This document shows, in pieces, positions 989 through 45,088 of a stretch of DNA of 45,088 bases (the first letter of the stretch is position 1; every line of letters begins with the position of its first letter). A model generated the notes under the pieces. The model saw only the letters and a program-made list of their open reading frames with translations. It ran no database searches and was not told the origin of the DNA. The position numbers were made by a program, and so were the translations under genes. Origin of the DNA: a virus; IMG/VR virus record IMGVR_UViG_3300038701_001628, positions 1 to 45,088 of that record, one strand, 5' to 3'.

Positions 989-1603
989 ATGCACGATTTG
1001 CTACAAGAGATCACAGGACAAAATGTCACGGATTTTGACACGAGTGGTGTAATTTTTAGTTACACTTATAACAAAGGTGGTGAGGAATACCAGGGTGAGG
1101 TGTCACTTGAAGAGATTTTACTGGAAATGTGGGATCGTAAAAAGAAGAAGAAAAAGGCAGGTGTAGAAGTGGCTGCTAGGTTCAAGAAGCTCAATGACAT
1201 CGATATGATGATAAAGAAGGTGCTGGAAACTGATAGTACTCTTCTTAAAGTTGACTTGATCCATAGTGACCAGATTGCTGAAGTGCTTGAGACTTACTAC
1301 CCAGATCAATTCTACTTTCAGTATTCCAGATTACCAAAGGTGGCATACGGTCTCACAAAGCAGCAGAAAGCACACTGTAGATCCATCGCCGGGCGCATGA
1401 CTAAACTCGGTTACAAGACCTTGAGGACTCGTTCTTACATTCCAGCACAGAACGGAGAACCAGGACATACCAGTACAAGGACTGTATGGGTGTTGAGGAA
1501 CAATGATCGCTATGAGGGGTTAAGTGAGTTAATGGTTCGCCAAGTGGTAGACCATCAGTGGTCGTCTTTACCCGAAGCAGCTAATGGGGTCAGTTTTTTA
1601 TGA
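989..1603 (+). CDS. hypothetical protein with K6 tract and C-terminal PEA..VSFL tail
   Basis: 204-aa ORF with an AGGAA RBS and a 4-nt ATGA overlap with the next gene. I recognise no family. Confidence 0.7.
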   Translation: MHDLLQEITGQNVTDFDTSGVIFSYTYNKGGEEYQGEVSLEEILLEMWDRKKKKKKAGVEVAARFKKLNDIDMMIKKVLETDSTLLKVDLIHSDQIAEVLETYYPDQFYFQYSRLPKVAYGLTKQQKAHCRSIAGRMTKLGYKTLRTRSYIPAQNGEPGHTSTRTVWVLRNNDRYEGLSELMVRQVVDHQWSSLPEAANGVSFL

Positions 1604-2064
1604 TCAATTTCCTAATAGACTACAGACATTTAATATCCAATAAGAAGTTGGGCTTCGTTGTGCAAGTGGTTAGTTCTCACCACGACAACGAGTTACTATC
1701 GTTATTGGTCAAACATGTCGACTCATTTGATTCAAAATCAAAAGAAGTAATACTATCAGAGTTGAAGCATGTTGACATGCCGCCTTTGGAGTACGCCAAC
1801 GATATTCTTTATTCTCTTGTCAGTTTGATTCAACACTTCCCCTTCGCCCAACGTAAACGCAACTTCGAAAGAGTACTGGAAGATGTGGTGGTAATGTATG
1901 AGCGTGCGTTGAACAAGCGAGAAATTGATGCTGATGAATTTCTTGGACTCACCCTCGCCCCCCTCGGTGAAAGGTGGTGGGTGAAGAGTCGTTCCAACCA
2001 CGAGGTATTCAATATGATAGTTAAATGGTTCAACAACAGACCCGAAGCCCCATCCTTCCTGTAA
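1600..2064 (+). CDS. hypothetical protein, C-terminal PEAPSFL tail
   Basis: 154-aa ORF translationally coupled to the upstream gene. No recognisable motif. Confidence 0.65.
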   Translation: MINFLIDYRHLISNKKLGFVVQVVSSHHDNELLSLLVKHVDSFDSKSKEVILSELKHVDMPPLEYANDILYSLVSLIQHFPFAQRKRNFERVLEDVVVMYERALNKREIDADEFLGLTLAPLGERWWVKSRSNHEVFNMIVKWFNNRPEAPSFL

Positions 2065-2096
2065 TCTGGCACACCTATTGCACAGTCTAAGCCCCG

Positions 2097-2570
2097 GTGA
2101 TAAACTGGGGCATGGCCAGAAAACGTATTTCCCTAGCTGACATCTATGGTGTCGGCATCTCCGACCCCAAGCGCGCTAACTTCGTCATTGAGTACTCGAA
2201 GGACTTCGACGCGCGTCGAGCTGCTGCCGTGTCCGGTTATGCCGCTGATTATGGTTACAAGCTTCGCGATGATCCTGAGATCCAGGCTGCACTTGAGCAC
2301 ATTCTCACCTACCGATTAGAGACCAGTCATGTCGATGCTGAGTGGTTGCTGTGGGAGCTTGTCGACAATCACCAGATTGCACGTGCTGCAGGTAACATCA
2401 GCGCCAGCAACACAGCACTTAATACTCTGGCAAAACATGCCATGATTGACGCATTCGCTGCTGAGAAGGTTGAGATAGCAGGTGATGAGGCTATTAAAGA
2501 ACGATTGTTACGAGCGCGCAAGCGTATGCAGAAAGACAATAAGGATGGAGATGACGTAAGTTTCATGTGA
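2097..2570 (+). CDS. terS: terminase small subunit (Terminase_2-like)
   Basis: KRANFVIEYSKDFDARRAAAVSGYAADYGYKLRDDPEIQAALE matches the TerS helix-turn-helix pattern (F..eY...n...AA..aGY). It sits upstream of TerL. GTG at 2097; alternative ATG at 2112. Confidence 0.75.
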   Translation: MINWGMARKRISLADIYGVGISDPKRANFVIEYSKDFDARRAAAVSGYAADYGYKLRDDPEIQAALEHILTYRLETSHVDAEWLLWELVDNHQIARAAGNISASNTALNTLAKHAMIDAFAAEKVEIAGDEAIKERLLRARKRMQKDNKDGDDVSFM

Positions 2571-27826: not shown

Positions 27827-28141
27827 ATGGGCACAAGATCTGCATTAGCCCCAATTAAAGATGGGAATATTCATACACTTGTGGACCTGGCTAACCACCC
27901 CACGACGGTTTACACGGGTCAGGGTGTGCTTATTGGTGTTATATGTCACACAACCACCAGTGCTCATCTCATTGAAGTTAAGGATGGGAGTGACGTTATA
28001 GCGAGATTGGCTGTGTCACTGAACATTGGCGACACTATTGACCTGTTTGAAATGGAATTCACTGAGAGCATTGTAATTGACGGGAACGCCGCAGCCACAG
28101 GAACCATTACTTTAATATATCAACCCTATCCTAATTCTTAA
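27827..28141 (+). CDS. hypothetical protein
   Basis: 104-aa ORF with GAGGA upstream. Last gene of the rightward operon. Confidence 0.55.
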   Translation: MGTRSALAPIKDGNIHTLVDLANHPTTVYTGQGVLIGVICHTTTSAHLIEVKDGSDVIARLAVSLNIGDTIDLFEMEFTESIVIDGNAAATGTITLIYQPYPNS

Positions 28142-29637
28142 AAGAAATTGACTTCAAGTTCATTTGTCGTAATTCCGTCCCTGTATCTTTGCAGGGCGGA
28201 TTTCAAACCGTCCTGATCATCTGTCTTGCGTTCAATTGCATCAGCAACAGCAAGGTCCACAGTGTCTCGGCACAGAATCCTAATGATTGAAACGGGGTTC
28301 TTTTGACCTTGTCGATTCAATCTGCCATTCATTTGTTCGTAAAGTTCAAGGCTCCAATTCATACCGAACCAAACCAATATGCTACCATTATCTTGGAGAC
28401 CATCGATACCGTGACCCATACTGGCAGGGTGACCAATGAGTAATTTAATTCTTCCAGCATTCCAGTCATCAATCACCTTCCCGGTTTGACTCGATGGGGT
28501 CTTGGTGAGATTGACTGGTTTAAGTGATTTAAACTTTTTCATTATTCGTTCAGCATCACTTTTGAAAGTGTAGCTACACAGCACAGGTTGACCACCAGCC
28601 TCTTCGAGTACATCATCAAGCGCTTCCAGTTTAGCATCGTGTAGTGACTCCCAGTCACTTGTGTCACCGACGTAAGGGGTACCATTACAGAACTGTAGAC
28701 ATTTATTAGAGACACTTGAGCGACTGAATAGCTCGATCTCACGACCATTCTCTAACATGGTGAACATGTTCTTCTCGACTTCCTGATATGCTTTACGAGC
28801 CTTCTCAGGAAGATCCACCATTACATTCGTAACTTTGCACTCAGGCATATCAAGATAATCTTTGGCATCCATCTTTTTAGTGATATCACTTATGTGATGT
28901 TCGATCCATTGCTTACCTTCTTCAGTGGGAGTGAAATTCCATCCGTTATAATCACTCGCAAAGTAGCTGTCTTTGTAATGGGTGATGTATTCACCGAGGC
29001 GTTTACCACCATCGACTGCGAGGTACTGACCGTGTAGGTCGAGATAACCGTTAGACGCAGGTGTGCCAGTCAGACCCACTCGATACTTGAACTCTTTAAT
29101 TAACTTGCGCCAACCGGTTATTTTAATTTTGTGAGTGGTGCCCCACTTATCTTGCCGGTCCCTGGTGCCGCCAGCCATGCGTCGAGTTGTGCTGTTTTTT
29201 AATTTTGAAACTTCATCATACACCACCATTTCAAATGGTAACTTCTTACCTTGACTCAAGTAATAATGATCCAGGGTCTCAGCTAACCAGTTCATATTTT
29301 CATAATTGCAGAGAAATAAATCAGCATCGGCAAACAGTGCGCGGGTTCGTTTCTCTTTGGTGCCGTGCATCACACTACATCGTAGGTGTTTGGTGTGTGT
29401 CCAGTTAGCACATTCCCTATCCCATACGGACTGGATTACTCTAAGCGGTCCAAAGATTAATACTTTGTTAACTTGACCTGCTCGCATTCTGTCGATGATT
29501 ACAGTCAATGTCGTTATGGTTTTGCCAAGGCCCATACCCAACCACAGCATTGCATCATCGTTATAGAGCATATGAAGACAGCACTCTTTCTGGTATTCGT
29601 GGAGATCTTCAGGGGTTAATAGTTGCGAAGGCACCAA
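28138..29637 (-). CDS. SNF2-family helicase
   Basis: Motif I LGMGLGKT, motif II VVYDEVSKL, GHPASMGHGIDGLQ, motif VI QMNGRLNRQGQ. Confidence 0.85.
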   Translation of the reverse strand: MVPSQLLTPEDLHEYQKECCLHMLYNDDAMLWLGMGLGKTITTLTVIIDRMRAGQVNKVLIFGPLRVIQSVWDRECANWTHTKHLRCSVMHGTKEKRTRALFADADLFLCNYENMNWLAETLDHYYLSQGKKLPFEMVVYDEVSKLKNSTTRRMAGGTRDRQDKWGTTHKIKITGWRKLIKEFKYRVGLTGTPASNGYLDLHGQYLAVDGGKRLGEYITHYKDSYFASDYNGWNFTPTEEGKQWIEHHISDITKKMDAKDYLDMPECKVTNVMVDLPEKARKAYQEVEKNMFTMLENGREIELFSRSSVSNKCLQFCNGTPYVGDTSDWESLHDAKLEALDDVLEEAGGQPVLCSYTFKSDAERIMKKFKSLKPVNLTKTPSSQTGKVIDDWNAGRIKLLIGHPASMGHGIDGLQDNGSILVWFGMNWSLELYEQMNGRLNRQGQKNPVSIIRILCRDTVDLAVADAIERKTDDQDGLKSALQRYRDGITTNELEVNFF

Positions 29638-32499: not shown

Positions 32500-32847
32500 T
32501 TACCTCAATGTTTCTCGAACTTCTTTAATAAACTCATCGACACCTTCGACACCATAAACAACAAGCGCGCTGACACCATGATCTCTGAGTCTGTCGATCT
32601 CACGTTTTTGCCAAGGACTAAGTCGACCATCAATTGTTTTAACTTCAACAAACCATACAAGACCGTTGACAATTACAATCCTGTCAGGAACACCATTTAC
32701 CCCTGGTGAAACCCACTTGCGAGTAATGCCACCAAGCTTCATGATTTCTGAATCTAAGTATCGTTCAACTTTGTTTTCACGTGCTGCCATACTGTTCCCC
32801 GTGATTAAATAGATCAGACAATTATAAAAATAAATTAAATACTTCAT
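32500..32847 (-). CDS. VRR-NUC nuclease
   Basis: GVPDRIVI...VWFVEVKT...LSPWQKREIDRL (PD-(D/E)xK core). ATGA coupling to the polymerase stop. Alternative start ATG at 32790 (MAARENK). Confidence 0.75.
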   Translation of the reverse strand: MKYLIYFYNCLIYLITGNSMAARENKVERYLDSEIMKLGGITRKWVSPGVNGVPDRIVIVNGLVWFVEVKTIDGRLSPWQKREIDRLRDHGVSALVVYGVEGVDEFIKEVRETLR

Positions 32848-34829
32848 TCTTCCTCCGTCAATAATGTTACAAGCTTCTCAGCTTGCTTGATGTACCACTC
32901 ATGATTTAGTGTATCGAATGTAACACCTTCGAGATTATTACACAACTCAACAGACCAACCAGTATTGATGCCTGTGCGACGTTCTTCATAAACGCTTTTA
33001 TTCTTAGTGTGTATACGCTCATCCCACACGTCTCCTACTTCTTCTAAGACAGTCTGGTACTGGAAGTCCGATATGCCATTCTTGCGTTTAAACGCACCCT
33101 CTGGTCCCGCAGGAGGCATGACCTTCTCAAGCGGTCTTCCTTCTGTTGATATGAAATATCGAACGATGTTGCTGACTTGTTCTCCACCCCATTCAAGTCG
33201 AGTAGACCTGGGTACTTTTGCTCGTAGAAAGAAATCAAAGATGTCATCGTGCCCAGCGATAAAGGACCGAATGTCAGCACCGTGTACAAGCGCAGCTTCA
33301 GCAGCCTTTGGTACAATGATTGCTGAGTGGTTTTGGTGCCAACCGAGTTCGTATTCATATGCGCCTTTCCGTTTCAGATCGCCACTGGTGTATTCTGCAA
33401 TATAATTATTCACATCTCGAATAAACATACGCGAGTATTCAGCAGCTTCAAGTTCAAGATTGGTTAAGTTTTCCCACCATGATTGGACTTGCTCAATCCA
33501 GGGTTTCAATGAGCGTGGGCATCGAATGGTCAGACCATCAGTGTTAATCTGAATCATTTGAACATCTGGTGAATTCATCAGTGCTTCAGCTAACATACAC
33601 AGAAGAAGCTGTCCATTAATCGTAATCGACATTGTGTACTGGGGGTCATAGAATGGTGAGTATTTGTTATTCGAATCCCCGTAAACCCCGTTGAGTGCCA
33701 GCTTTAGCATCGCATTGATCGCCGGGAATTCTTTCTTCGGGTGTGCTTTACGCATTTCGTAAACGTCACTGTACACTTTGTAAAAAGTTGAACCCAAATG
33801 GGCAGGATAAAACTTATTTGCAATTGCAAGGTTCGGGTAGTAGCTGGCAACATCCAGATCAATGATAATAAATTCTTCATCTGAACTCACAATCGATGAT
33901 TCAATTGACCCGTGAATACCACCTGTACCGAAGTCGAAATTAAATCCATTCACATTACAACTAATGTCTTTAAACACACCTTTGGTTTCAGTGATTACTT
34001 GAGACTTGAACCAATCAAGAATGCGGTTAAACTCAGGATCAGAAAAGCTAACGCAAGGGAGAATAACATCAGACAAATCAATTTTATCACGGATCGTTTG
34101 CACCATCTGGCGGCGACCATTGGAGTAATTATAGCAACACCCTGGCGCGACTTTCTCCAACTCCATGATGAAGTAGTCTTTACCAATCTTTGTATCATTG
34201 TGATTGATGAAGTTCTTGTCGTATTTATTAGTGAGTTCTTCGCGGAATTGAATTTGCTCTTTAGTTTCATGATAAAAATCCACAGTAGCATCAACGTCGT
34301 GATCGTTGTATTTACACAGTACATCTATCTGATCACTGGTCAACTCGGTACCAACGTCGAAAGGAAGATCTTCAATGTTATTCATTCGCATGTTGAACTC
34401 AAGCACTTTTAAGCTGGTAGCTCGTGCAACATTATCGAAGTGATGAATTTTAAAAAGATCTATTTGAGGAACTAACCAATCACTTTCCCACACCATGTGT
34501 GTGAACCTGGCGTTATGTTGTGCGTTGATGATTGACATTGCCTTGTCATAAATATCTTTGTAAGTAATCAGTGCATTCTGATTCTGTGCAATAAAGTGAA
34601 CCACCGGGTAATCGAATCCGATGTTGTTGAACCCCACCCATCGGTTACCGTTAATGCGACAGTAGTTGATGAACTGAACCATGAGAACAATGTCATTGCG
34701 GCGCGGTGAGATCTCAAACGCCCAGCGACGATCGAGATCCACATGACGACATCGAAACGTAAAGACATTTGGGTATGTTTCGATGTCGTAGGCGATGTCG
34801 CCAGTTGGCAGGTTAAATAGAAATTCCAT
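32844..34829 (-). CDS. DNA polymerase with 3'-5' exonuclease domain (family-B-like motifs)
   Basis: Exo I YDIETY, Exo II GFNNIGFDYP, Exo III YNDHDVD. Pol motif A DLDVASYYPNL, motif B KLALNGVYGDS, motif C QINTDGL. Confidence 0.8.
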   Translation of the reverse strand: MEFLFNLPTGDIAYDIETYPNVFTFRCRHVDLDRRWAFEISPRRNDIVLMVQFINYCRINGNRWVGFNNIGFDYPVVHFIAQNQNALITYKDIYDKAMSIINAQHNARFTHMVWESDWLVPQIDLFKIHHFDNVARATSLKVLEFNMRMNNIEDLPFDVGTELTSDQIDVLCKYNDHDVDATVDFYHETKEQIQFREELTNKYDKNFINHNDTKIGKDYFIMELEKVAPGCCYNYSNGRRQMVQTIRDKIDLSDVILPCVSFSDPEFNRILDWFKSQVITETKGVFKDISCNVNGFNFDFGTGGIHGSIESSIVSSDEEFIIIDLDVASYYPNLAIANKFYPAHLGSTFYKVYSDVYEMRKAHPKKEFPAINAMLKLALNGVYGDSNNKYSPFYDPQYTMSITINGQLLLCMLAEALMNSPDVQMIQINTDGLTIRCPRSLKPWIEQVQSWWENLTNLELEAAEYSRMFIRDVNNYIAEYTSGDLKRKGAYEYELGWHQNHSAIIVPKAAEAALVHGADIRSFIAGHDDIFDFFLRAKVPRSTRLEWGGEQVSNIVRYFISTEGRPLEKVMPPAGPEGAFKRKNGISDFQYQTVLEEVGDVWDERIHTKNKSVYEERRTGINTGWSVELCNNLEGVTFDTLNHEWYIKQAEKLVTLLTEEE

Positions 34830-35768: not shown

Positions 35769-36503
35769 TTAAGCGAACGATGTCGCTATGATTCCAAACT
35801 TAGCTCGTAAGTCTGCTTCACTCAGCACCTCTTGACCACAGTAGAAATAACCCGGTGCCGATGGGTGAGCAGTCCAACCTTCAGGTGGGAACTGTGGGGC
35901 AGAGACAGGTGGCGCAACTGGGGGTGGTGTAGGAGCCACTGGTGCACCTGCTGCAGGTGTCGCAGGTGCGACCTCACAGTCAGCAAACATCTGCTCAGGT
36001 GTTGCTTTATTATCAAAGCGACCAAGAGGACATTCACCACCAGTCAACATGACACCATTAAGCCACCCGCCGATGCCACCCTTACCGTCAGAGTAACCAG
36101 TGATACCACAGGCAACCCAACATTCAGCACCAGGGTAGGCTGCAGCGGGGTCCATAACAGGTTGCATATTAGCGTCAACGACACTGGGTCGATCGTTCTC
36201 TTTAGCTGACAAAGTCAAACAGTAGTAGCCTGAAAACTTCGCGTCATAGTAAGCCTTACCTGCACACTTGGTGTCGTATGGTATGAAAGCTTTACGCAAG
36301 TCAGCAGGTGCACCTGATGGGTACTTGTTGGCAATCTCGGCGTTTTGAATACCTTCGATTGTTGCAATCTGTGGGTCACCCGGTGGAAACATAAGATCCA
36401 TTGTGAACCGCTTCTTATCACCCATTGGATTACCTTGCGCATTACGCGCATAGTCAGCGGTGAAGATCTGTGGAAAAGAAATAAAGCCTTTAAACTTGTA
36501 CAT
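35769..36503 (-). CDS. ssDNA-binding protein, gp2.5/DUF2815-like
   Basis: The N-terminus MYKFKGFISFPQIFTA... and its position next to a DUF2800-type nuclease fit this family. Pro-rich linker and C-terminal ...ATSFA tail. Confidence 0.5.
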   Translation of the reverse strand: MYKFKGFISFPQIFTADYARNAQGNPMGDKKRFTMDLMFPPGDPQIATIEGIQNAEIANKYPSGAPADLRKAFIPYDTKCAGKAYYDAKFSGYYCLTLSAKENDRPSVVDANMQPVMDPAAAYPGAECWVACGITGYSDGKGGIGGWLNGVMLTGGECPLGRFDNKATPEQMFADCEVAPATPAAGAPVAPTPPPVAPPVSAPQFPPEGWTAHPSAPGYFYCGQEVLSEADLRAKFGIIATSFA

Positions 36504-36512
36504 TGAGTTCTC

Positions 36513-37949
36513 CTAAAAGAATGATATTGGTTGTTCAGGTTCTGATTGTACATCCTTCGTTGTACTTTGTGCAACATCTTCATCAATAATTTTTTGTATT
36601 GATGCAGTATCGTCAGTGGTCCCATTTCCTGCGGGTTCTTCAAACAAAGAAGGTGAAGGTACATCTTTGAACATGTCTTCAGCGCTGACCTTCTGCTTCT
36701 CACGAGAAACTTTTGTAAGTCTTAGTTTACCGGCTTTGTGAGTGATATAGTCTTTCTCGATGCGTTTTTTCTGAGCATCATCGAGACAATCCAACTTCAA
36801 CACTTGCGCAGGACTGATCAGTTTCGGTGGAAAGATCTGGTCTTTCTTCAAGCGTCGAGCCTTCAACATTTTAGCAATGTTCTCTTCACTGTCATTCCAG
36901 ACATTAGAACCGCGTCCAGGTTGCAATGCGTAACCCGGTACCGTCTCGCCACTTTCAAGTCGTGTGTTAATCTCAGCTTCAACTTTTTCAAATATCGCTT
37001 CGATCCCAGCACGAGCGTCAGCAAGTTCCGACAACTGGTCAACTGTCAACTCTTTTACTTTATCTAATGACTGACCAACCAATTCAAATAAACTGGTTCC
37101 ATCAGTCGCAATCACATCTGTGGTCATAGTTTTCACCGTTTCTAAACTGCGCCCTGATTCAGCAGTGCAGTTTGATTTATGTTTACACCATCGACAGTAC
37201 CCCTTACCACCTTTACTGTCAGGTATCAATGGTGCTTCGGGGTCATCGGTGGCACGAGCAGCATGAGCCAGTTTCTCAGCTTCAGCAATGATGTATGTTG
37301 CTGTTGTGTCCTCATACCTAACAACTGGGTCAGTCTTGGGTTGCACGATTGTCATCCGACAAGGTCCAACTTGTTCAGGTCTGAATGGTCGACAAAGGTC
37401 AGGACCACTGGCGACAAATGGTCGAAGCTTCCCAGCAAGGTAGCTGATTAACTGAGTGTTACCTGGCACATGAACCCATCCGCGACCATCTTTATAGTCA
37501 CAGACTTCAAGGAATAAACACTTACCGTGATTATTTACAGCACTGATTGTAATATCCACCGTGCCCCACCAGTCGCCACGACCAAACATGCCACCAACAT
37601 CGGCTTTACTTTCAGTTTCGACTTTGACAGTGCTGCCAGGGTAGGCATCACGCAACTCACGCACACGACGCGACACATAGTCCAAGCACATCTGCACTCG
37701 TTCAATACGGTCCTCACTGACCAACCACCCCATTGGATTATCTGGGTGGTTACAGCCGATAACTTGACCATCATAAGTGTCAGCACGTACACCATTCTGC
37801 AAGCATAACTCTAACAGCAAGTGACTACCGGTTCCGTCGATGGCAGCTTCGCCAGGGATATCCTCGTAAGCTGCTTCTTCACGAACGGAGCCGGGGCAGT
37901 TCGGCCAGCGATGATTGCTTGGTCCTAATCTTGCATGTCCCTCACTCAC
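36513..37949 (-). CDS. PD-(D/E)XK (Cas4/DUF2800-like) exonuclease
   Basis: GPSNHRWPNCPGSVRE, LEVCDYKDGRG (D..D/ExK) and the Cys cluster CRWCKHKSNC. Confidence 0.7.
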   Translation of the reverse strand: MSEGHARLGPSNHRWPNCPGSVREEAAYEDIPGEAAIDGTGSHLLLELCLQNGVRADTYDGQVIGCNHPDNPMGWLVSEDRIERVQMCLDYVSRRVRELRDAYPGSTVKVETESKADVGGMFGRGDWWGTVDITISAVNNHGKCLFLEVCDYKDGRGWVHVPGNTQLISYLAGKLRPFVASGPDLCRPFRPEQVGPCRMTIVQPKTDPVVRYEDTTATYIIAEAEKLAHAARATDDPEAPLIPDSKGGKGYCRWCKHKSNCTAESGRSLETVKTMTTDVIATDGTSLFELVGQSLDKVKELTVDQLSELADARAGIEAIFEKVEAEINTRLESGETVPGYALQPGRGSNVWNDSEENIAKMLKARRLKKDQIFPPKLISPAQVLKLDCLDDAQKKRIEKDYITHKAGKLRLTKVSREKQKVSAEDMFKDVPSPSLFEEPAGNGTTDDTASIQKIIDEDVAQSTTKDVQSEPEQPISFF

Positions 37950-38413
37950 GCCGTTACCGCCTTCACTTTATCAATGACTGCCTGATACTGGTCAGCTTTT
38001 AACTCGGTGATTGATTGAACACCAAACTCACGCAACACAGCGTCAATGGGGTCACGTTTACCAAGTCGCTTAAACTCGGTGACCAGCGCCGCATTTAACT
38101 CATCGGCTGTCATTGTCGCTGCAGGCGCAGGGGGTGTACTGGGCGCGGAAACCGGAGCAGCAGATGGTACCGTCTCCGTCACAGGTGGTGCAGGCGTAAC
38201 CGGTGCCGCTGGGGTGGTGGTATTCTGGGTAGGGTTCCCAGGAGGTGGCGTAACCGTCTCCGCTGCAGATGGGGCAGATGGTGGTACCGGAGGCTTTGGG
38301 GCGACAATTTCATCAACCTCACTCTGTGACACTGCGCCACCGATGTGGTCAAGCTTGGCCAAAATACCTTCAAGTGAATCAGCGATTCGTTTTAGGTTGT
38401 TCTCGATGCTCAT
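37946..38413 (-). CDS. hypothetical protein with long Pro/Ala/Thr-rich linker
   Basis: 155-aa ORF with ATGA coupling on both sides. Confidence 0.55.
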   Translation of the reverse strand: MSIENNLKRIADSLEGILAKLDHIGGAVSQSEVDEIVAPKPPVPPSAPSAAETVTPPPGNPTQNTTTPAAPVTPAPPVTETVPSAAPVSAPSTPPAPAATMTADELNAALVTEFKRLGKRDPIDAVLREFGVQSITELKADQYQAVIDKVKAVTA

Positions 38414-38586
38414 GATTTTTCCTTCTTGGGTTTAATTGTTAATCGTTCCTCATTGTGAGCAACAATCATGTTGCGTAGCACAACTTGGTGTGGGATCTCT
38501 TTGGCTCTACACTTCTCAATGAACGTGGATTTATCACCCTCATTGATACGCATGTCCAGCCGATCGTCTAGTGGTTTATCGGACAA
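38410..38586 (-). CDS. ribbon-helix-helix (CopG/MobC-like) regulator, TTG start
   Basis: My translation is (M)SDKPLDDRLDMRINEGDKSTFIEKCRAKEIPHQVVLRNMIVAHNEERLTIKPKKEKS. GGAGG lies 9 nt upstream of the TTG, and the stop overlaps the next ATG (ATGA). Not in the ORF track (58 aa). Confidence 0.5.
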   Translation of the reverse strand: MSDKPLDDRLDMRINEGDKSTFIEKCRAKEIPHQVVLRNMIVAHNEERLTIKPKKEKS

Positions 38587-38627
38587 GGGAAGATGCCTCC
38601 GTTGAAATTATTGAAACGTGCCAGCAC

Positions 38628-38656
38628 AGTGTACGACTAAATACAACAAAGTACAA
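38628..38656 (-). promoter_or_regulatory. weak sigma70-like promoter for the replication operon
   Basis: Minus strand reads TTGTAC, 17 nt, TACACT. It overlaps the inverted repeat ACAAC-g-GTTGT (38653-38663) and TACAAC direct repeats 10 nt apart. Confidence 0.25.
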
Positions 38657-38768
38657 CGGTTGTTAAAAAGTTTTTATTCAGGCATAATTGACAAGCTATC
38701 TGTATAAATAACCTTATAATTTAGACGTGAGGAATTCGTCATGTAAACTTTCCGCCAAATTTTAGACA

Positions 38769-38794
38769 TAAAAAAGCCGCCCTTGTGAGGCGGC
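38769..38794 (-). terminator. intrinsic terminator oriented on the minus strand
   Basis: GCCGCC-7 nt-GGCGGC, followed on the minus strand by TTTTTTAT. No U-tract on the plus side. Confidence 0.6.
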
Positions 38795-38850
38795 GAAAGA
38801 TGAGAACAACCCAATGAAACTCAACTATAGTATAAGGTAGTGCAAACAAT

Positions 38851-41460
38851 ATGCCAAGTAATTTAGAATTTCTAACTGCACTATTCGGAGACAACGCACC
38901 CTGGGTTCATGTTACTGATTTTCCTTACGATCCTGCCAACATTCCAAGCGAACGACACTTAGCGGCATGGAAGGGTGACTACTTTAGTCGCTATCAGTTC
39001 CAGAATGGAACCAATCAATACTTCACAATAAGCAACTTTTATGCCGATGAAAAAGGTGTTGCTCGTAGACGTAAAGCGTTATTCCGACACACACCGGTGA
39101 TAGTCCTTGATGACGTGAAAGAAAAGTTATCAATGGATGAAGTGCAGAAATTACCCAAACCATCATGGATTCTCGAAACCTCGCCGGGTTCTGAGCAGTG
39201 GGGGTACATCTTATCTGAACCATGCACGAGTCGTGCCAGGGTGGAGAACTTACTTGACGGACTGGTCGCTAATGGTCTAGCTCCCGCTGGTAAAGATCCA
39301 GGTATGAAAGGCGTCACTCGTTACGTGCGCTTGCCTGAAGGTTACAATACTAAGTCAGCCAAGATGATTAATGGTCAACCATTTAAGTGTCAAATAACTG
39401 AATGGAACCCCTTTCACACGGTCACTCTTGAACAACTTGCAGCGCCCTTTCACGTAGACCTCGACGCTATTAGGCGTGATCAACGTGTCGATGGTGCTGC
39501 TCAGGTTGATGATCACCCATTACTGCAAATCCCAGACCTGATACGAATCAAGGAAGTGCGTAGTGAAGGTCGATTCGATTGTACATGTCCCTGGGTGGAC
39601 GAGCACACAGGTTGTGAGGATTCAGGTTCGGCGATTTTCACCAATGGTGATGGGTCGATAGGATTCAAATGTCATCATGGTGCTTGTCAAGACAGGACTG
39701 GGCGACATTTGCTTAACTTCATTGAAGAACAAGCACCGGGGTTTAGTCAAAAATTCAACAACTGGCAGATGGTCAATGCTTTTGCTGATGTTTCTAGCGT
39801 CTCATTTATGGGAGATTCTGAGAAACAAAGTGTAGAAAAGTGCACTTTAGGGTCCAAAAACGCGAATAATGAGCAGTTTAATGTACCTTATGAATCGGTA
39901 CCCCCGGTACCAGCACAACCCCAAGAACAAACCGAAGACATTATAAAGCAAGTATTGCGCCAACTCAGAGCTGAGATACCAGGGTCTCAACAGTCGATCG
40001 ATTTGGCATCCAAAATTCTGAAACAGATCGACTCGATGCCTGAGATACAGAAGATCACTTGGCACAATGATGTATGTGATGTTATGAAATGGTCTAAGCG
40101 CGACTTCGAGCGGATCATGAAGGATCTGCGCAGCACGTGGTATGAGGAATCACAGTCAAGCGTCAACTTCTTCGATGAAGTCATCTATGTAGCAGAGCAG
40201 AATCAATTCTTCGATCGCCGTAAGCGTATATGGTACACACCAGAGGCATACCAAAACACATACTCACATCTGGACCCTGAAGCCCGTAAGGAAGCGTTAC
40301 AGGGTGGTCGTGTCACCAAAGTGGACAAGGTGGACTACGCCCCTAAAAAACCTGCCGTGTTCGATGAGCGAGGTACCATTTACGGTAACGCTTGGCATGG
40401 CGACAGTGAGATGATGGGAGTGGAGGGTGATGTGTCCACATGGCTCGATCACTTCGACATTCTCGGGTGGGGTCAGTACCGTGACCACGTACTCAAGTGG
40501 ATGGCATGGACCATTGTCAACCCTGATATCAAGATCAACCATATGGTGTTACTTGGCAGCGGTGAGGGTTGCGGTAAAGACTGGCTGATGTATCCTTTAG
40601 TTAAGGCAATGGGTGATAACCATATGACAATCAGCGGGGAAGAACTGCTTGAAGGCTTTAACGACTACGTATTATCCACGAAACACCTACACATCAACGA
40701 AGCCGAGTTGGGCGACAGGAATGAAGCTGTTGCGGTATCGAGTAAACTTAAACCGTTGGCAGCAGCACCCCCAGAAAAATTACGAGTCAATCAAAAATCG
40801 GTCAAGAAGATCGAAGTACGGAACCTTCTAAGTGTCAGCATGACCACCAACTCCCAAACACCGGTGCGGTTAAGCGGTCACTCCCGTCGTATATTCGCAC
40901 TTTGGTCTGACTTAACCGTCAGAAATGACTGGGGTGAGATGAAGCAAGAGTGGAAAGACTTCTGGGGTGCTGCGTGGCCCTGGATGACCGATGGTGGATG
41001 GCAGCATTGTATCTGGTACTTACGCAATTGTGTTGACTTGTCGAACTTCAACCCTGGTGAGTCACCCCCTGTTACCGCATTCCTGCGTGACATTGTTGAC
41101 GCCAGCCGATCACCCCTACAGCAGACATTACAGCGGTTGATTATGACAGGTTTCGGTGTCTTCAAATCTGACTTGGTCACCAGTGAGGATATTGTCAACA
41201 CGATCAATGCTGGTATGAACTTCCATCCTGATATGATCTTTGTCAAGTCAGTACCTCAACCAAATCGCATCGGTCCCGCTTTGAAAGAGATGGGTGCACA
41301 TTATCGACTAGATGCCAAGACTGAGAATGACACTGCTTCATTGTGGGTGATACGCAACCATGATAAGTGGAGAAACTTCACTCCGTCCGAATTGATGCAC
41401 GAGTATCGTCGGATGGTTGGTGACTATAAATCAAATACACCTGTGAGTGTTGTGAAATGA
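38851..41460 (+). CDS. primase-helicase (prim-pol N-terminus, Zn-binding segment, P4/D5-type ATPase)
   Basis: VIVLDDV and ETSPGSEQWGYIL (primase core). CTCPWVDEHTGC...FKCHHGAC (zinc-binding). Walker A LLGSGEGCGKDW and Walker B LHINEAE. Confidence 0.8.
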   Translation: MPSNLEFLTALFGDNAPWVHVTDFPYDPANIPSERHLAAWKGDYFSRYQFQNGTNQYFTISNFYADEKGVARRRKALFRHTPVIVLDDVKEKLSMDEVQKLPKPSWILETSPGSEQWGYILSEPCTSRARVENLLDGLVANGLAPAGKDPGMKGVTRYVRLPEGYNTKSAKMINGQPFKCQITEWNPFHTVTLEQLAAPFHVDLDAIRRDQRVDGAAQVDDHPLLQIPDLIRIKEVRSEGRFDCTCPWVDEHTGCEDSGSAIFTNGDGSIGFKCHHGACQDRTGRHLLNFIEEQAPGFSQKFNNWQMVNAFADVSSVSFMGDSEKQSVEKCTLGSKNANNEQFNVPYESVPPVPAQPQEQTEDIIKQVLRQLRAEIPGSQQSIDLASKILKQIDSMPEIQKITWHNDVCDVMKWSKRDFERIMKDLRSTWYEESQSSVNFFDEVIYVAEQNQFFDRRKRIWYTPEAYQNTYSHLDPEARKEALQGGRVTKVDKVDYAPKKPAVFDERGTIYGNAWHGDSEMMGVEGDVSTWLDHFDILGWGQYRDHVLKWMAWTIVNPDIKINHMVLLGSGEGCGKDWLMYPLVKAMGDNHMTISGEELLEGFNDYVLSTKHLHINEAELGDRNEAVAVSSKLKPLAAAPPEKLRVNQKSVKKIEVRNLLSVSMTTNSQTPVRLSGHSRRIFALWSDLTVRNDWGEMKQEWKDFWGAAWPWMTDGGWQHCIWYLRNCVDLSNFNPGESPPVTAFLRDIVDASRSPLQQTLQRLIMTGFGVFKSDLVTSEDIVNTINAGMNFHPDMIFVKSVPQPNRIGPALKEMGAHYRLDAKTENDTASLWVIRNHDKWRNFTPSELMHEYRRMVGDYKSNTPVSVVK

Positions 41461-42270: not shown

Positions 42271-42471
42271 TTAGGAGACATGGGTTTGATTACCTCGCTT
42301 GTGATTATATTCAGCAGTGTAAAGCTCGCAGTTTGTGTGCTCTACTGCTGATGTTTCTGAGTTACTGAAGTAACCACTTGAGTTTGTCCAGTAACGATGA
42401 CCTTTAGGAATTACTCCATTACAGCAATTACAGATTCGGTCTTCAGTTGCGACTTCTAATTTAATGCTCAT
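42271..42471 (-). CDS. hypothetical Cys-rich protein
   Basis: 66 aa, ICNCCNGVIPKGHRYW...HTNC. ATGA overlap with the upstream lysozyme gene. Confidence 0.5.
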   Translation of the reverse strand: MSIKLEVATEDRICNCCNGVIPKGHRYWTNSSGYFSNSETSAVEHTNCELYTAEYNHKRGNQTHVS

Positions 42472-42908
42472 GAGTTACTCCAAGCAGATAGTGCGTTATG
42501 GTAGTCATCTGGTTTAGCCTTACCACCTTCTGTGTTATAGAATTCCTTGAGATACTTGGACAACTCGGGTCTCGTGGTGGGTATTGGGTTGGGGTCTGTT
42601 AGAAGCATTGAGCGTGCCATGAATATGTTATACTTCAGATCCCACTCCAACGCTTTCACATTCTTAACAATACCACAGCGTGCAGCATTGTACCTAATCC
42701 TGTCTGCGTGCATCCACAGGCTCTCGTGAGTCGCTGGTTCCATTTGAATCACACCGAGTGCTGGCCCCTTAACTTGCTTGATGTAGGTGCCGCAGGATGA
42801 CTCATGAGCAACGATCATCATAATGGCTTCATGCGCTGGGAGTGACCAAGCTGACATTTCATCAAGGACTCGTCCTGTGAGATCTTTAAACTGTTCGTAA
42901 TTTAACAT
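42468..42908 (-). CDS. lytic transglycosylase (SLT-type), probable endolysin
   Basis: VAHESSCGTYIKQVKGPALGVIQMEP carries the catalytic ES and G.A.G.MQ-type motifs of family-1 transglycosylases. No signal or SAR sequence. Confidence 0.7.
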   Translation of the reverse strand: MLNYEQFKDLTGRVLDEMSAWSLPAHEAIMMIVAHESSCGTYIKQVKGPALGVIQMEPATHESLWMHADRIRYNAARCGIVKNVKALEWDLKYNIFMARSMLLTDPNPIPTTRPELSKYLKEFYNTEGGKAKPDDYHNALSAWSNS

Positions 42909-44472: not shown

Positions 44473-45088
44473 TTACTCGCATTCTACAAATTCACCATTG
44501 ACTAATTTGTACCATGTGTCAGCTTTCACATCTTGACCTGCTTTGGCTGTTTTGATATCAAGAATCTCATAGTCATCATTACGTTCAGTGATAACAATCC
44601 ATGATCCTTCTGACGCTTTAGCTTTAGAGTTATAACCAGTCACTATTGCTACAGATTCATTTCCTGAAACATCAGCCGCTGACTGGTACCCCGTGTTGCT
44701 CGCCGCTGAGTAGCGCCCCGTGTTGCTCGCCGCTGACTGGTACCCCGTGTTGCTCGCCGCTGACCGGTACCCCGTGTTGCTCGCCGCTGAGTAGCGCCCC
44801 GTGTTGCTCGCCGCTGAGTAGCTCCCCGTGTTGCTCGCCGCTGACTGGTCACCCGTGTTGCTCGCCGCTGACTGGTCACCCGTGTTGCTCGCCGCTGAGT
44901 AGCTCCCCGTGTTGCTCGCCGCTGACTGGTCACCCGTGTTGCTCGCCGCTGACTGGTCACCCGTGTTGCTCGCCGCTGACCGGTACCCCGTGTTGCTCGC
45001 CGCTGACTGGTCACCCGTGTTGCTCGCCGCTGACTGGTCACCCGTGTTGCTCGCCGCTGACCGGTACCCCGTGTTGCTCGCCGCTGAC
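44473..45088 (-). CDS. C-terminal part of tandem-nonapeptide-repeat protein (continuation of the gene at 1..588)
   Basis: In the SAASNTGxx frame the repeats run into ...GYQSAADVSGNESVAIVTGYNSKAKASEGSWIVITERNDDYEILDIKTAKAGQDVKADTWYKLVNGEFVECE, with stop TAA at 44475..44473. The frame is compatible with the left fragment if the 19 nt or 46 nt ends overlap. Confidence 0.7.
   Translation of the reverse strand, partial: SAASNTGYRSAASNTGDQSAASNTGDQSAASNTGYRSAASNTGDQSAASNTGDQSAASNTGSYSAASNTGDQSAASNTGDQSAASNTGSYSAASNTGRYSAASNTGYRSAASNTGYQSAASNTGRYSAASNTGYQSAADVSGNESVAIVTGYNSKAKASEGSWIVITERNDDYEILDIKTAKAGQDVKADTWYKLVNGEFVECE
44674..45088. repeat. 27-nt tandem repeat array, right portion (14 full units plus partial units at both ends)
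   Basis: Same invariant 19-nt core. Variable octamers are tggtaccc, cggtaccc and tggtcacc, with the last core base c->g in the tagcgccc and tagctccc units. Confidence 0.95.

Follow-up and report, generated by a model that had tools for sequence, protein, structure and literature searches.

Six proteins encoded in the genome of a marine, podovirus-like phage, the IMG/VR virus record IMGVR_UViG_3300038701_001628 (positions 1 to 45,088; this whole stretch of 45,088 nucleotides is the window referred to below), end in the same short C-terminal tail with the consensus -[V/I/P]-[S/N]-F-[F/L/M/A]. The occurrence of this tail is real and highly non-random. Analysis of the tail across related phages suggests that it may well be, with about an even chance, a short linear motif for docking on a single common receptor that co-evolves with it, is probably encoded by the phage, and for which the DNA polymerase or replisome would be the best candidate. 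The genome is complete (~45 kb, G+C 44.8%); its + strand carries a structural module of the T7/BPP-1 type and the replication module lies mostly on the - strand, but the primase gene is on the + strand. The six carriers, followed by the two replication proteins without the tail that are considered below, are:

989-1603, + strand: open reading frame (ORF) 1, a 204 amino acid (aa) protein of unknown function ending ...LPEAANGVSFL; tail V-S-F-L, codons 1589-1600
1600-2064, + strand: ORF2, a 154 aa protein of unknown function ending ...NNRPEAPSFL; tail P-S-F-L, codons 2050-2061
2112-2570, + strand: small terminase TerS (Terminase_2), 152 aa, with an acidic linker, ending ...DGDDVSFM; tail V-S-F-M, codons 2556-2567
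28138-29637, - strand: SNF2-family helicase (PF00176, phrog_62), 499 aa; tail V-N-F-F, codons 28141-28152
35769-36503, - strand: T7 gp2.5-like/Enc34-type (DUF2815) single-stranded DNA-binding and annealing protein (SSB; PF10991, phrog_112), 244 aa; tail T-S-F-A, codons 35772-35783
36513-37949, - strand: DUF2800 PD-(D/E)XK (Cas4/RecB-like) exonuclease (PF10926, phrog_69), 478 aa; tail I-S-F-F, codons 36516-36527
32844-34829, - strand: phage DNA polymerase (phrog_1252), 661 aa; without the tail
38851-41460, + strand: primase/helicase (DUF5906, VirE-like), 869 aa; without the tail in this phage

Non-random occurrence of the tail

The first-pass annotation of this sequence had reported the tails -VSFL, -PSFL and -VSFM on ORF1, ORF2 and TerS, and the same tail on three replication proteins. 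Both statements agree with the translated ORFs, the three replication proteins being the SNF2 helicase (..VNFF), the SSB (..TSFA) and the DUF2800 exonuclease (..ISFF), and no further carrier was found among the 49 proteins. When the null was taken as the rate at which this tripeptide pattern occurs inside the proteins of the phage, 0.056 proteins were expected to end in [SN]F[LMFA], while 6 of 49 do (binomial P=2.9e-11); the initial rough estimate had been well under one such terminus per proteome by chance. A looser pattern,.F[LMFAIV], also was enriched at the C-terminus (P=2e-5). The tail pattern was set post hoc, after the data had been seen, and more weight is therefore placed on its replication in relatives. 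The enrichment was found again in all four of the nearest cultured relatives, Vibrio phages 1.021.A, MZH0603, 1.185.O and PS25B.1 (~68% nucleotide identity over the packaging region), each with 5-8 carriers (P 6e-8 to 5e-14). The pattern was not present in the control genomes, which were Cobetia phage Carin1, T7, phiEap-2, VSiP and Vibrio phage 1.072.O. A chance origin of the tail was rejected on the basis of these enrichment tests and the recurrence in relatives.

A cause at the level of the DNA (a gene-end signal, translational coupling or a repeat) was also rejected. The tail codons are mixed, with Ser encoded by both TCN and AGY and Phe by both TTT and TTC, and the DNA downstream of the tails differs. 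ORF1 and ORF2 do share the string cccgaagc before the tail (1571-1578 and 2041-2048), as had been noted initially, but this sharing is incidental: the 8-mer is not kept in a relative that is 89% identical (L092), which reads tccgaaac.

Conservation of the tail on diverging proteins

The tail was found to be kept on the homologues of TerS, ORF1, ORF2, the SSB, the exonuclease and the helicase. Of the 82 TerS homologues compared (42-100% identity), 79 have F at position -2 and 73 have S at position -3; V, P or I occupies position -4 in 77 and L, F, M or I the last position in 74. The linker that joins the tail to the conserved RLLRARKR helix end is hypervariable, with a length of 3-59 residues and a composition rich in D, E, K, R and P. 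In the AlphaFold2 model of TerS, the last nine residues form a coil with a predicted local distance difference test (pLDDT) score of ~50 that follows a long helix. The ORF1 family (at least 10 sequences, 23-89% identity) likewise has an invariant F at -2 behind a variable linker of ~6-40 residues, and residues 198-204 of the ORF1 model have a pLDDT <50. For ORF2 a single homologue was found (89% identity), in which the linker carries a 5-aa insertion and the ..PEAPSFL end is unchanged.

The replication proteins were surveyed at 80 IMG/VR loci around DUF2800 homologues, which fall into two groups, namely class A (the type of this phage, including Yersinia phage fEV-1) and the large DSL-LC05 clade. 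All 26 class A exonucleases carry the tail. The SNF2 helicase ends in ..VNFF in all four Vibrio relatives and in fEV-1, and in ..PSFL, ..VSFL or ..LSFL at other class A loci. The SSB orthologues are alignable over the N-terminal ~177 aa alone, yet they end in ..PSFA, ..PSFG or ..PSFT. As judged from these comparisons, the tail is under purifying selection at the protein level, independently of the protein bodies that carry it. Because it is kept despite divergence of body and linker, and because the ends are disordered, it has the traits that characterise a short linear motif held on a flexible tether.

A separate observation concerns the last residue of the SSB tail. The class A SSBs (L001, L002, L003, L004, L006 and others) always end in ..PSF[A/G/T/N/V], with a weaker-looking last residue than the F, L or M of other carriers. 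With the SSB presumably more abundant than any other carrier, a weaker tail would fit graded affinities of competitors for one site.

Convergent acquisition of the tail

Homologues of ORF1 and ORF2 are missing from the four Vibrio relatives. In 1.021.A, 1.185.O and PS25B.1, a different protein, HNH-like in 1.021.A, is encoded upstream of TerS and also ends in ..VSFL; no tail-bearing protein was found at this position in MZH0603. Further class A carriers include a Dam-type methyltransferase (..ISFM), an N6_Mtase-type methyltransferase (..PSWL) and two C5 cytosine methylases (..VSFI and ..LSFL), as well as a 152-158-aa protein (..TPSFF) and a 293-aa protein (..QPSFF), both of unknown function. 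Every carrier that could be identified is a DNA-acting protein. Sequence comparison thus indicates that the tail is acquired convergently by proteins that are not homologous to one another, among them DNA methyltransferases of three unrelated families and one HNH-like protein.

One other protein ends close to the class A tail: an 88-aa protein of the Acb2/Tad1-hairpin family, an anti-defence sponge type (PF24729, E=1.4e-16; L012 12159-12425, + strand), has the end ..QPTFF, which may be due to chance or may mark another carrier.

Shared tails in other lineages

Other lineages were found to share other tails. In the DSL-LC05 clade, the exonuclease ends in ..LP[S/A]WL and the SSB in ..LP[S/P]F[F/L/M], with as many as three further residues after either motif. 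Of the 49 proteins of Bordetella phage BPP-1, 6 end in -[D/G]-L-[V/I] (P=2.4e-10), among them the exonuclease, the SSB, TerS and the Bpm methylase. The exonuclease and primase have ..DDDLxx in common in Guernseyvirinae and ..GTFGK.. in Vibrio phage 1.072.O; primases bear the lineage tail in these two groups and in some BPP-1 relatives.

Within the BPP-1 clade, the tail differs from locus to locus and is shared within each. TerS, SSB, methylase and primase of one locus (L130) all end in -LA; L120 and L122 have -EGLV, -EGLV and -DGLV within the genome, L174 has -EFV, -EFA and -EFC, and L108 and L109 have -KEAA and -KAAA. Over 80 BPP-1-clade loci, the similarity between exonuclease and SSB tails of the same locus exceeded that in 4999 of 5000 shuffles, a comparison in which shared ancestry is not corrected for. 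Taken together, these comparisons indicate that the tails differ between lineages, are shared within genomes and change together there.

BPP-1 may also have a second shared ending. Three small replication-module proteins, including a VRR-NUC endonuclease, end in ..QEVLA (bbp37, 33702-34133), ..DEVLA (bbp43, 38568-38831) and ..FEVVA (bbp44, 38828-39046; all in L008), and the related ends ..DEVLA and ..EGVLA recur on VRR-NUC proteins of BPP-1 relatives. In the phage studied here, a VRR-NUC protein is encoded at 32500-32847.

The terminase as a possible receptor

The first-pass annotation had proposed that the tail is an element by which TerS docks on TerL, and that ORF1 and ORF2 mimic it and so regulate packaging. 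The idea of a functional docking peptide common to several proteins is strongly supported by the conservation, the linker variability and the convergence described above. Its assignment to TerL, and with it the role of ORF1 and ORF2 as packaging regulators, is scarcely probable. C-terminal segments of TerS commonly contact TerL; ORF1, ORF2 and TerS lie side by side and co-oriented at the start of the + strand cluster, upstream of TerL, and a tail-bearing protein precedes TerS in three of the four Vibrio relatives. However, the same tail is found on the exonuclease, the SSB, the SNF2 helicase and, among relatives, on methyltransferases of three kinds, and neither its presence nor its sequence tracks the TerL partner. 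In fEV-1, TerL and portal have no detectable similarity to those of this phage and TerS is tailless, while the exonuclease, SSB and helicase keep class A tails. Conversely, the DSL-LC05 TerL is 35% identical to that of this phage and the TerS there has no tail. Among the relatives of BPP-1, a change in the TerS tail goes along with changes in those of the exonuclease and SSB. The fEV-1 and DSL-LC05 patterns rule out TerL as the common receptor, although TerL may be one additional partner of the tail. Because of these patterns and that of BPP-1, the receptor would be expected to travel with the replication module or to be a host factor, and not to travel with the terminase.

The polymerase or replisome as the probable receptor

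Since the receptor appears to co-evolve with the tails, it is probably encoded by the phage, and the polymerase is the leading candidate. It never bears the tail, and its similarity follows the tail class, with 67% identity to the polymerase of fEV-1, 54% to that of 1.021.A, 52% to that of DSL-LC05 and no match in BPP-1 or phiEap-2. The polymerase (32844-34829) had no sequence match in the PDB and no match in Pfam or NCBIfam. The primase was rejected as receptor in the BPP-1 clade, where the DLV tail survives a swap to a different primase type. Phage fEV-1 and Guernseyvirinae both infect Enterobacterales and have different tails; if a conserved pocket of the host were the receptor, phages that share a host order would not be expected to differ in this way.

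Several points weigh against the polymerase or replisome. The choice of receptor was made by elimination and analogy, and the polymerase shares its lack of a tail with several other proteins; the receptor could possibly be a small unannotated protein, such as that encoded at 37946-38413, or a host factor. The shuffle test for co-variation ignores shared ancestry and rests on perhaps five independent changes. In addition, the SSB tail (..GIIATSFA) does not have the acidic stretch that T7-type tails usually show, and its F is penultimate, where theirs is terminal. We know of no precedent for a TerS or a methyltransferase that docks on a polymerase. Finally, a loose resemblance to the last three positions of clamp-binding motifs is seen in all three main tail classes, which brings in the host clamp as an alternative receptor, albeit an unlikely one.

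Possible host receptors

If the tails are non-canonical motifs for the host beta sliding clamp (DnaN), then exonuclease, helicase, methyltransferases, SSB and TerS would be hung on clamps left on replicated DNA. The set of carriers, with a nuclease, an SNF2 translocase and DNA methyltransferases, is like a PCNA/clamp toolbelt, and both class A ([S/N]-F-hydrophobic) and BPP-1 tails ([D/G]-L-[V/I]) are like the T4 peptide LDFL and the last three positions of QL[S/D]LF (PMC9690074). The DSL-LC05 motifs lie 1-3 residues from the end, so that a free carboxylate is unneeded, and the use of a host clamp by a phage has precedent (PMC12867686). The clamp would have to be that of the host, since the scans did not reveal one encoded by the phage: in Pfam, PHROGs and NCBIfam scans that covered the replication-module and flanking early-gene proteins and left out the structural and several small early proteins, neither a clamp nor a clamp loader was matched, and the protein encoded at 42468-42908 was rejected as a clamp after a weak precomputed DNA_pol3_beta_2 flag on a homologue could not be reproduced at E<=10. 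The pattern tests, on the other hand, speak against the clamp. The beta-clamp consensus is Q-aliphatic-x-[L/M]-[F/L] or a hexapeptide form, in which Q is not absolutely required (bioRxiv 10.1101/2025.08.20.671105). When 282 tails (85 class A, 82 TerS and 115 DSL-clade) were searched, Q[LIVA].[LM][FL] or Q[LIVA].[LM].[FL] matched none in any of the three sets (0/85, 0/82 and 0/115), and [LIVA].[LM][FL] without the Q matched 0/85, 0/82 and 5/115, respectively. The last position of the tails (L/F/M/I) is compatible with that of the clamp motif, but position 4 is F or W (F in 79 of the 82 TerS) and not L or M, and the Q is absent. Moreover, tails that are radically unlike between lineages (-KEAA, -DDDLSN, -GTFGK), and even within one host order, are hard to square with one highly conserved pocket.

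Two other host-directed explanations were considered. It is very unlikely that the tail is a mimic of the peptide conserved at the C-terminus of FtsZ (E. coli DYLDIPAFLRKQAD) and docks on FtsA, ZipA, MinC, SlmA, ZapD or ClpX, whereby it would place the replication and packaging machinery or disturb division. The core of the FtsZ tail, [ILV]-P-x-[FWY]-[LIM], as in DIPAFL, is widely conserved in bacteria (PMC4117426). This core is found in 79% of DSL-LC05-clade exonuclease and SSB tails (e.g., ..EIPAWLK compared with DIPAFLR) and in some class A exonucleases (e.g., ..DIPSFL), but only in 8% of class A and 2% of TerS tails and, strictly, in none of the six tails of this phage, the nearest being ORF2 with ..APSFL. 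Although the FtsZ tail is so widely conserved, the tails of BPP-1, Guernseyvirinae and 1.072.O bear no relation to it, and methyltransferases and nucleases have no obvious reason to bind division proteins. A degradation or chaperone tag, i.e., a C-terminal degron that is read by a host or phage protease adaptor and times protein turnover, is likewise very unlikely. Hydrophobic C-terminal tags on flexible ends are classic degrons, and S-x-hydrophobic-COOH would also fit class I PDZ ligands. Yet the carriers include the SSB and TerS, which are needed in bulk throughout infection, and are limited to DNA-acting proteins, and lineage-specific co-variation is unexpected if the tail is read by conserved host proteases. 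The DSL-LC05 motif lies 1-3 residues from the end and neither a PDZ domain nor a protease family was matched among the proteins scanned; the reading as a PDZ class I ligand was rejected on these two grounds even though the pattern fits.

A further observation concerns the polymerase itself. Its C-terminus (32844-32880; Pol genes at loci L030-L088) is conserved as ..EKL[V/C/T]x[L/G]L.., and in the DSL-LC05 clade as ..EKLCLGLA. The latter resembles the hexapeptide clamp form Q-aliphatic-x-L-x-L with K in place of Q, and may simply be the terminal helix of the fold.

Comparison with known systems

The feature described here is a much broader variant of the known principle of replisome tails shared between proteins. 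In T7, the SSB gp2.5 and the primase-helicase gp4 have a common acidic tail, ..D-x-D-F, by which both dock on the DNA polymerase gp5, and suppressors of gp2.5 delta-F map to gene 5. The tail of gp2.5 docks on a basic patch of the polymerase, and a DTDF peptide of gp4 is seen in PDB entry 6P7E (PMC12339929); in the T7 genome used as a control, gp2.5 ends in ..EDGDF and gp4 in ..NDTDF. As in T7, a gp2.5-type SSB (PF10991/phrog_112) and other replisome proteins share a C-terminal peptide with a key Phe on a disordered and often acidic tail, and the polymerase does not have it; here the SSB tail is also present on the exonuclease and SNF2 helicase of the same phage. In Guernseyvirinae and 1.072.O, it is the primase that bears the shared tail, like gp4. 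By contrast, the core here is [V/I/P]-[S/N]-F-hydrophobic, with F penultimate in all six tails, whereas that of T7 is D-x-D-F with F terminal. TerS (..DGDD) and the exonuclease (..SEPEQ) have acidic residues ahead of the tail, which the SSB (..KFGIIA) and ORF1 (..EAANG) do not. Furthermore, there are 6-8 carriers per genome, including TerS, the exonuclease, the SNF2 helicase and methyltransferases, compared with two in T7, and docking on the polymerase is putative here.

The T4 system couples a late process to replication by a similar device. Phage T4 uses its clamp gp45 for gp43, gp33 and gp55, and in phage Mu, MuC uses the host clamp. It is a C-terminal LDFL of gp33 and gp55 that binds the gp45 sliding clamp (PMC9690074), and T4 packaging is tied to the clamp network through gp17-gp55 (PMC9026906). 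In both T4 and this phage, a four-residue C-terminal tail of the form hydrophobic-small polar-F-hydrophobic is found on functionally different proteins. The pattern [LIVP][DSN]F[LFMI] matches 48 of 85 class A and 68 of 82 TerS tails; it was written around LDFL, and the matches therefore represent a resemblance and not homology. T4 differs in that it encodes the receptor, gp45, while no clamp-like protein was found among the proteins scanned here, and in that its carriers are transcription factors, and not TerS, methyltransferases and recombination proteins.

The beta-clamp motif QL[S/D]LF is likewise a short, often C-terminal peptide that is found on the disordered ends of many DNA enzymes and is read by one hub, and its position 3 (S/D/N/G) is followed by two hydrophobic residues. 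The tails here are without the Q, have F or W and not L or M at position 4, and are lineage-specific and not universal. In E. coli, the C-terminal tip of SSB, ..DDDIPF, is an interaction hub, which has in common with the tails here an acidic linker and a hydrophobic tip with P and F on an SSB. The E. coli tip is a ligand for which the partners carry the pocket, whereas the tip here is also found on the would-be partners, and [DE]-x-[ILV]-P-F matches none of the 85 class A tails.

Proposed role of the tail

If the tail acts by docking, as we infer, its position at the tip of a disordered, fast-evolving linker would allow many unrelated DNA-acting proteins to dock on one receptor. With the polymerase or replisome as that receptor, recombination enzymes, DNA methylation (in relatives), and TerS with ORF1 and ORF2 would be brought to replicating phage DNA, and the recruitment of TerS, the protein that initiates packaging, would couple packaging to replication. 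T4 provides a conceptual precedent, since gp17, gp55 and gp45 connect its packaging and late transcription with replication.

A more far-reaching proposal, which we put forward tentatively and with more doubt than confidence, is a toolbelt without a clamp. A single phage-encoded hub, either the polymerase or an unannotated small protein, would read a lineage-specific C-terminal address code that was gained independently by at least 10 unrelated families, and would join replication, recombination, methylation and the start of packaging in one factory. A change of the code, such as from SFL to DLV to KEAA, would then separate the machineries of co-infecting relatives.

In T7 and T4, two or three proteins of the replisome or of transcription are known to share docking tails. 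The 6-8 carriers per genome found here take the principle further, to TerS and to DNA methyltransferases of three kinds, in BPP-1 as well as in hundreds of environmental phages. Should the tails dock on the replisome, the initiation of packaging and protective DNA methylation would be physically coupled to replication in a simple way, ORF1 and ORF2 would gain a testable role, and the tail could serve as a sequence handle for finding members of the network in unannotated phages. The lineage-specific, co-varying codes also represent a natural system for the co-evolution of a hub with its ligands.

Features of TerS, ORF1 and ORF2

The assignment of TerS is supported by PF03592 (28.1 bits compared with a cut-off of 26.1), phrog_51 and a match to the Pam5 small terminase in the PDB (E=1e-8). 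The AlphaFold2 model, with helices over residues 8-92 and a long helix over 96-143, fits a Terminase_2 helical DNA-binding core and oligomerisation helix. The gene likely starts at the ATG at 2112 and not at the GTG at 2097, since the close relative L092 starts likewise.

ORF1 and ORF2 had no match in Pfam, PHROGs, NCBIfam or the phage database. The AlphaFold2 model of ORF1 (mean pLDDT 81.7) has an N-terminal small sheet and coiled coil, a C-terminal helix/hairpin domain and a disordered end with the tail. A Foldseek search with this model found nothing at E<=0.001, the best hints being Sac7d-like, winged helix-turn-helix or origin-binding proteins at E ~0.01-0.1; the C-terminal domain may, by the model, be winged-helix-like. 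In one member of the ORF1 family (L094, 1117-1719), residues 150-184, which cover the conserved RTVWVLRN region, are 43-49% identical (E 1e-4 to 7e-3) to the C-terminal ends of the primases of the four Vibrio relatives (L001 38191-38295, L002 5343-5447, L003 38615-38719 and L004 41216-41320). This similarity hints that the ORF1 family and Vibrio-phage primases may share a small, possibly DNA-binding, domain.

Within ORF1, codons ~51-56 (1139-1157) form an A-rich run that encodes KKKKKK and is also present in the 89% identical relative L092; more distant members of the family are K/R-rich and not homopolymeric at this site. A-rich runs are possible slippery sites for polymerases or ribosomes.

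Other observations

Between TerS and TerL, a 75-aa ORF (2572-2799, + strand) starts with MFMKWIIVTLVLMLAGCASPQ and resembles a lipoprotein signal peptide with a lipobox (LAGC); a lipoprotein-like gene within a terminase operon is unusual.

A 27-bp unit is repeated in tandem at both ends of the genome, with 8.9 copies at 1-239 and 15.3 copies at 44675-45088. The contig is presumably circular or terminally redundant, in which case the two arrays would form a single one of ~24 copies that spans its junction, and the ORFs called within the array (2-430, + strand, and 44649-45041, - strand) are probably spurious. The array lies directly upstream of ORF1, ORF2 and TerS and may represent an origin of the iteron type or else a pac region. 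A related 27-bp array is found in Vibrio phage 1.185.O (L003 28057-28357), where it is annotated as spacers of clustered regularly interspaced short palindromic repeats (CRISPR), and fEV-1 has 15-bp arrays at both ends.

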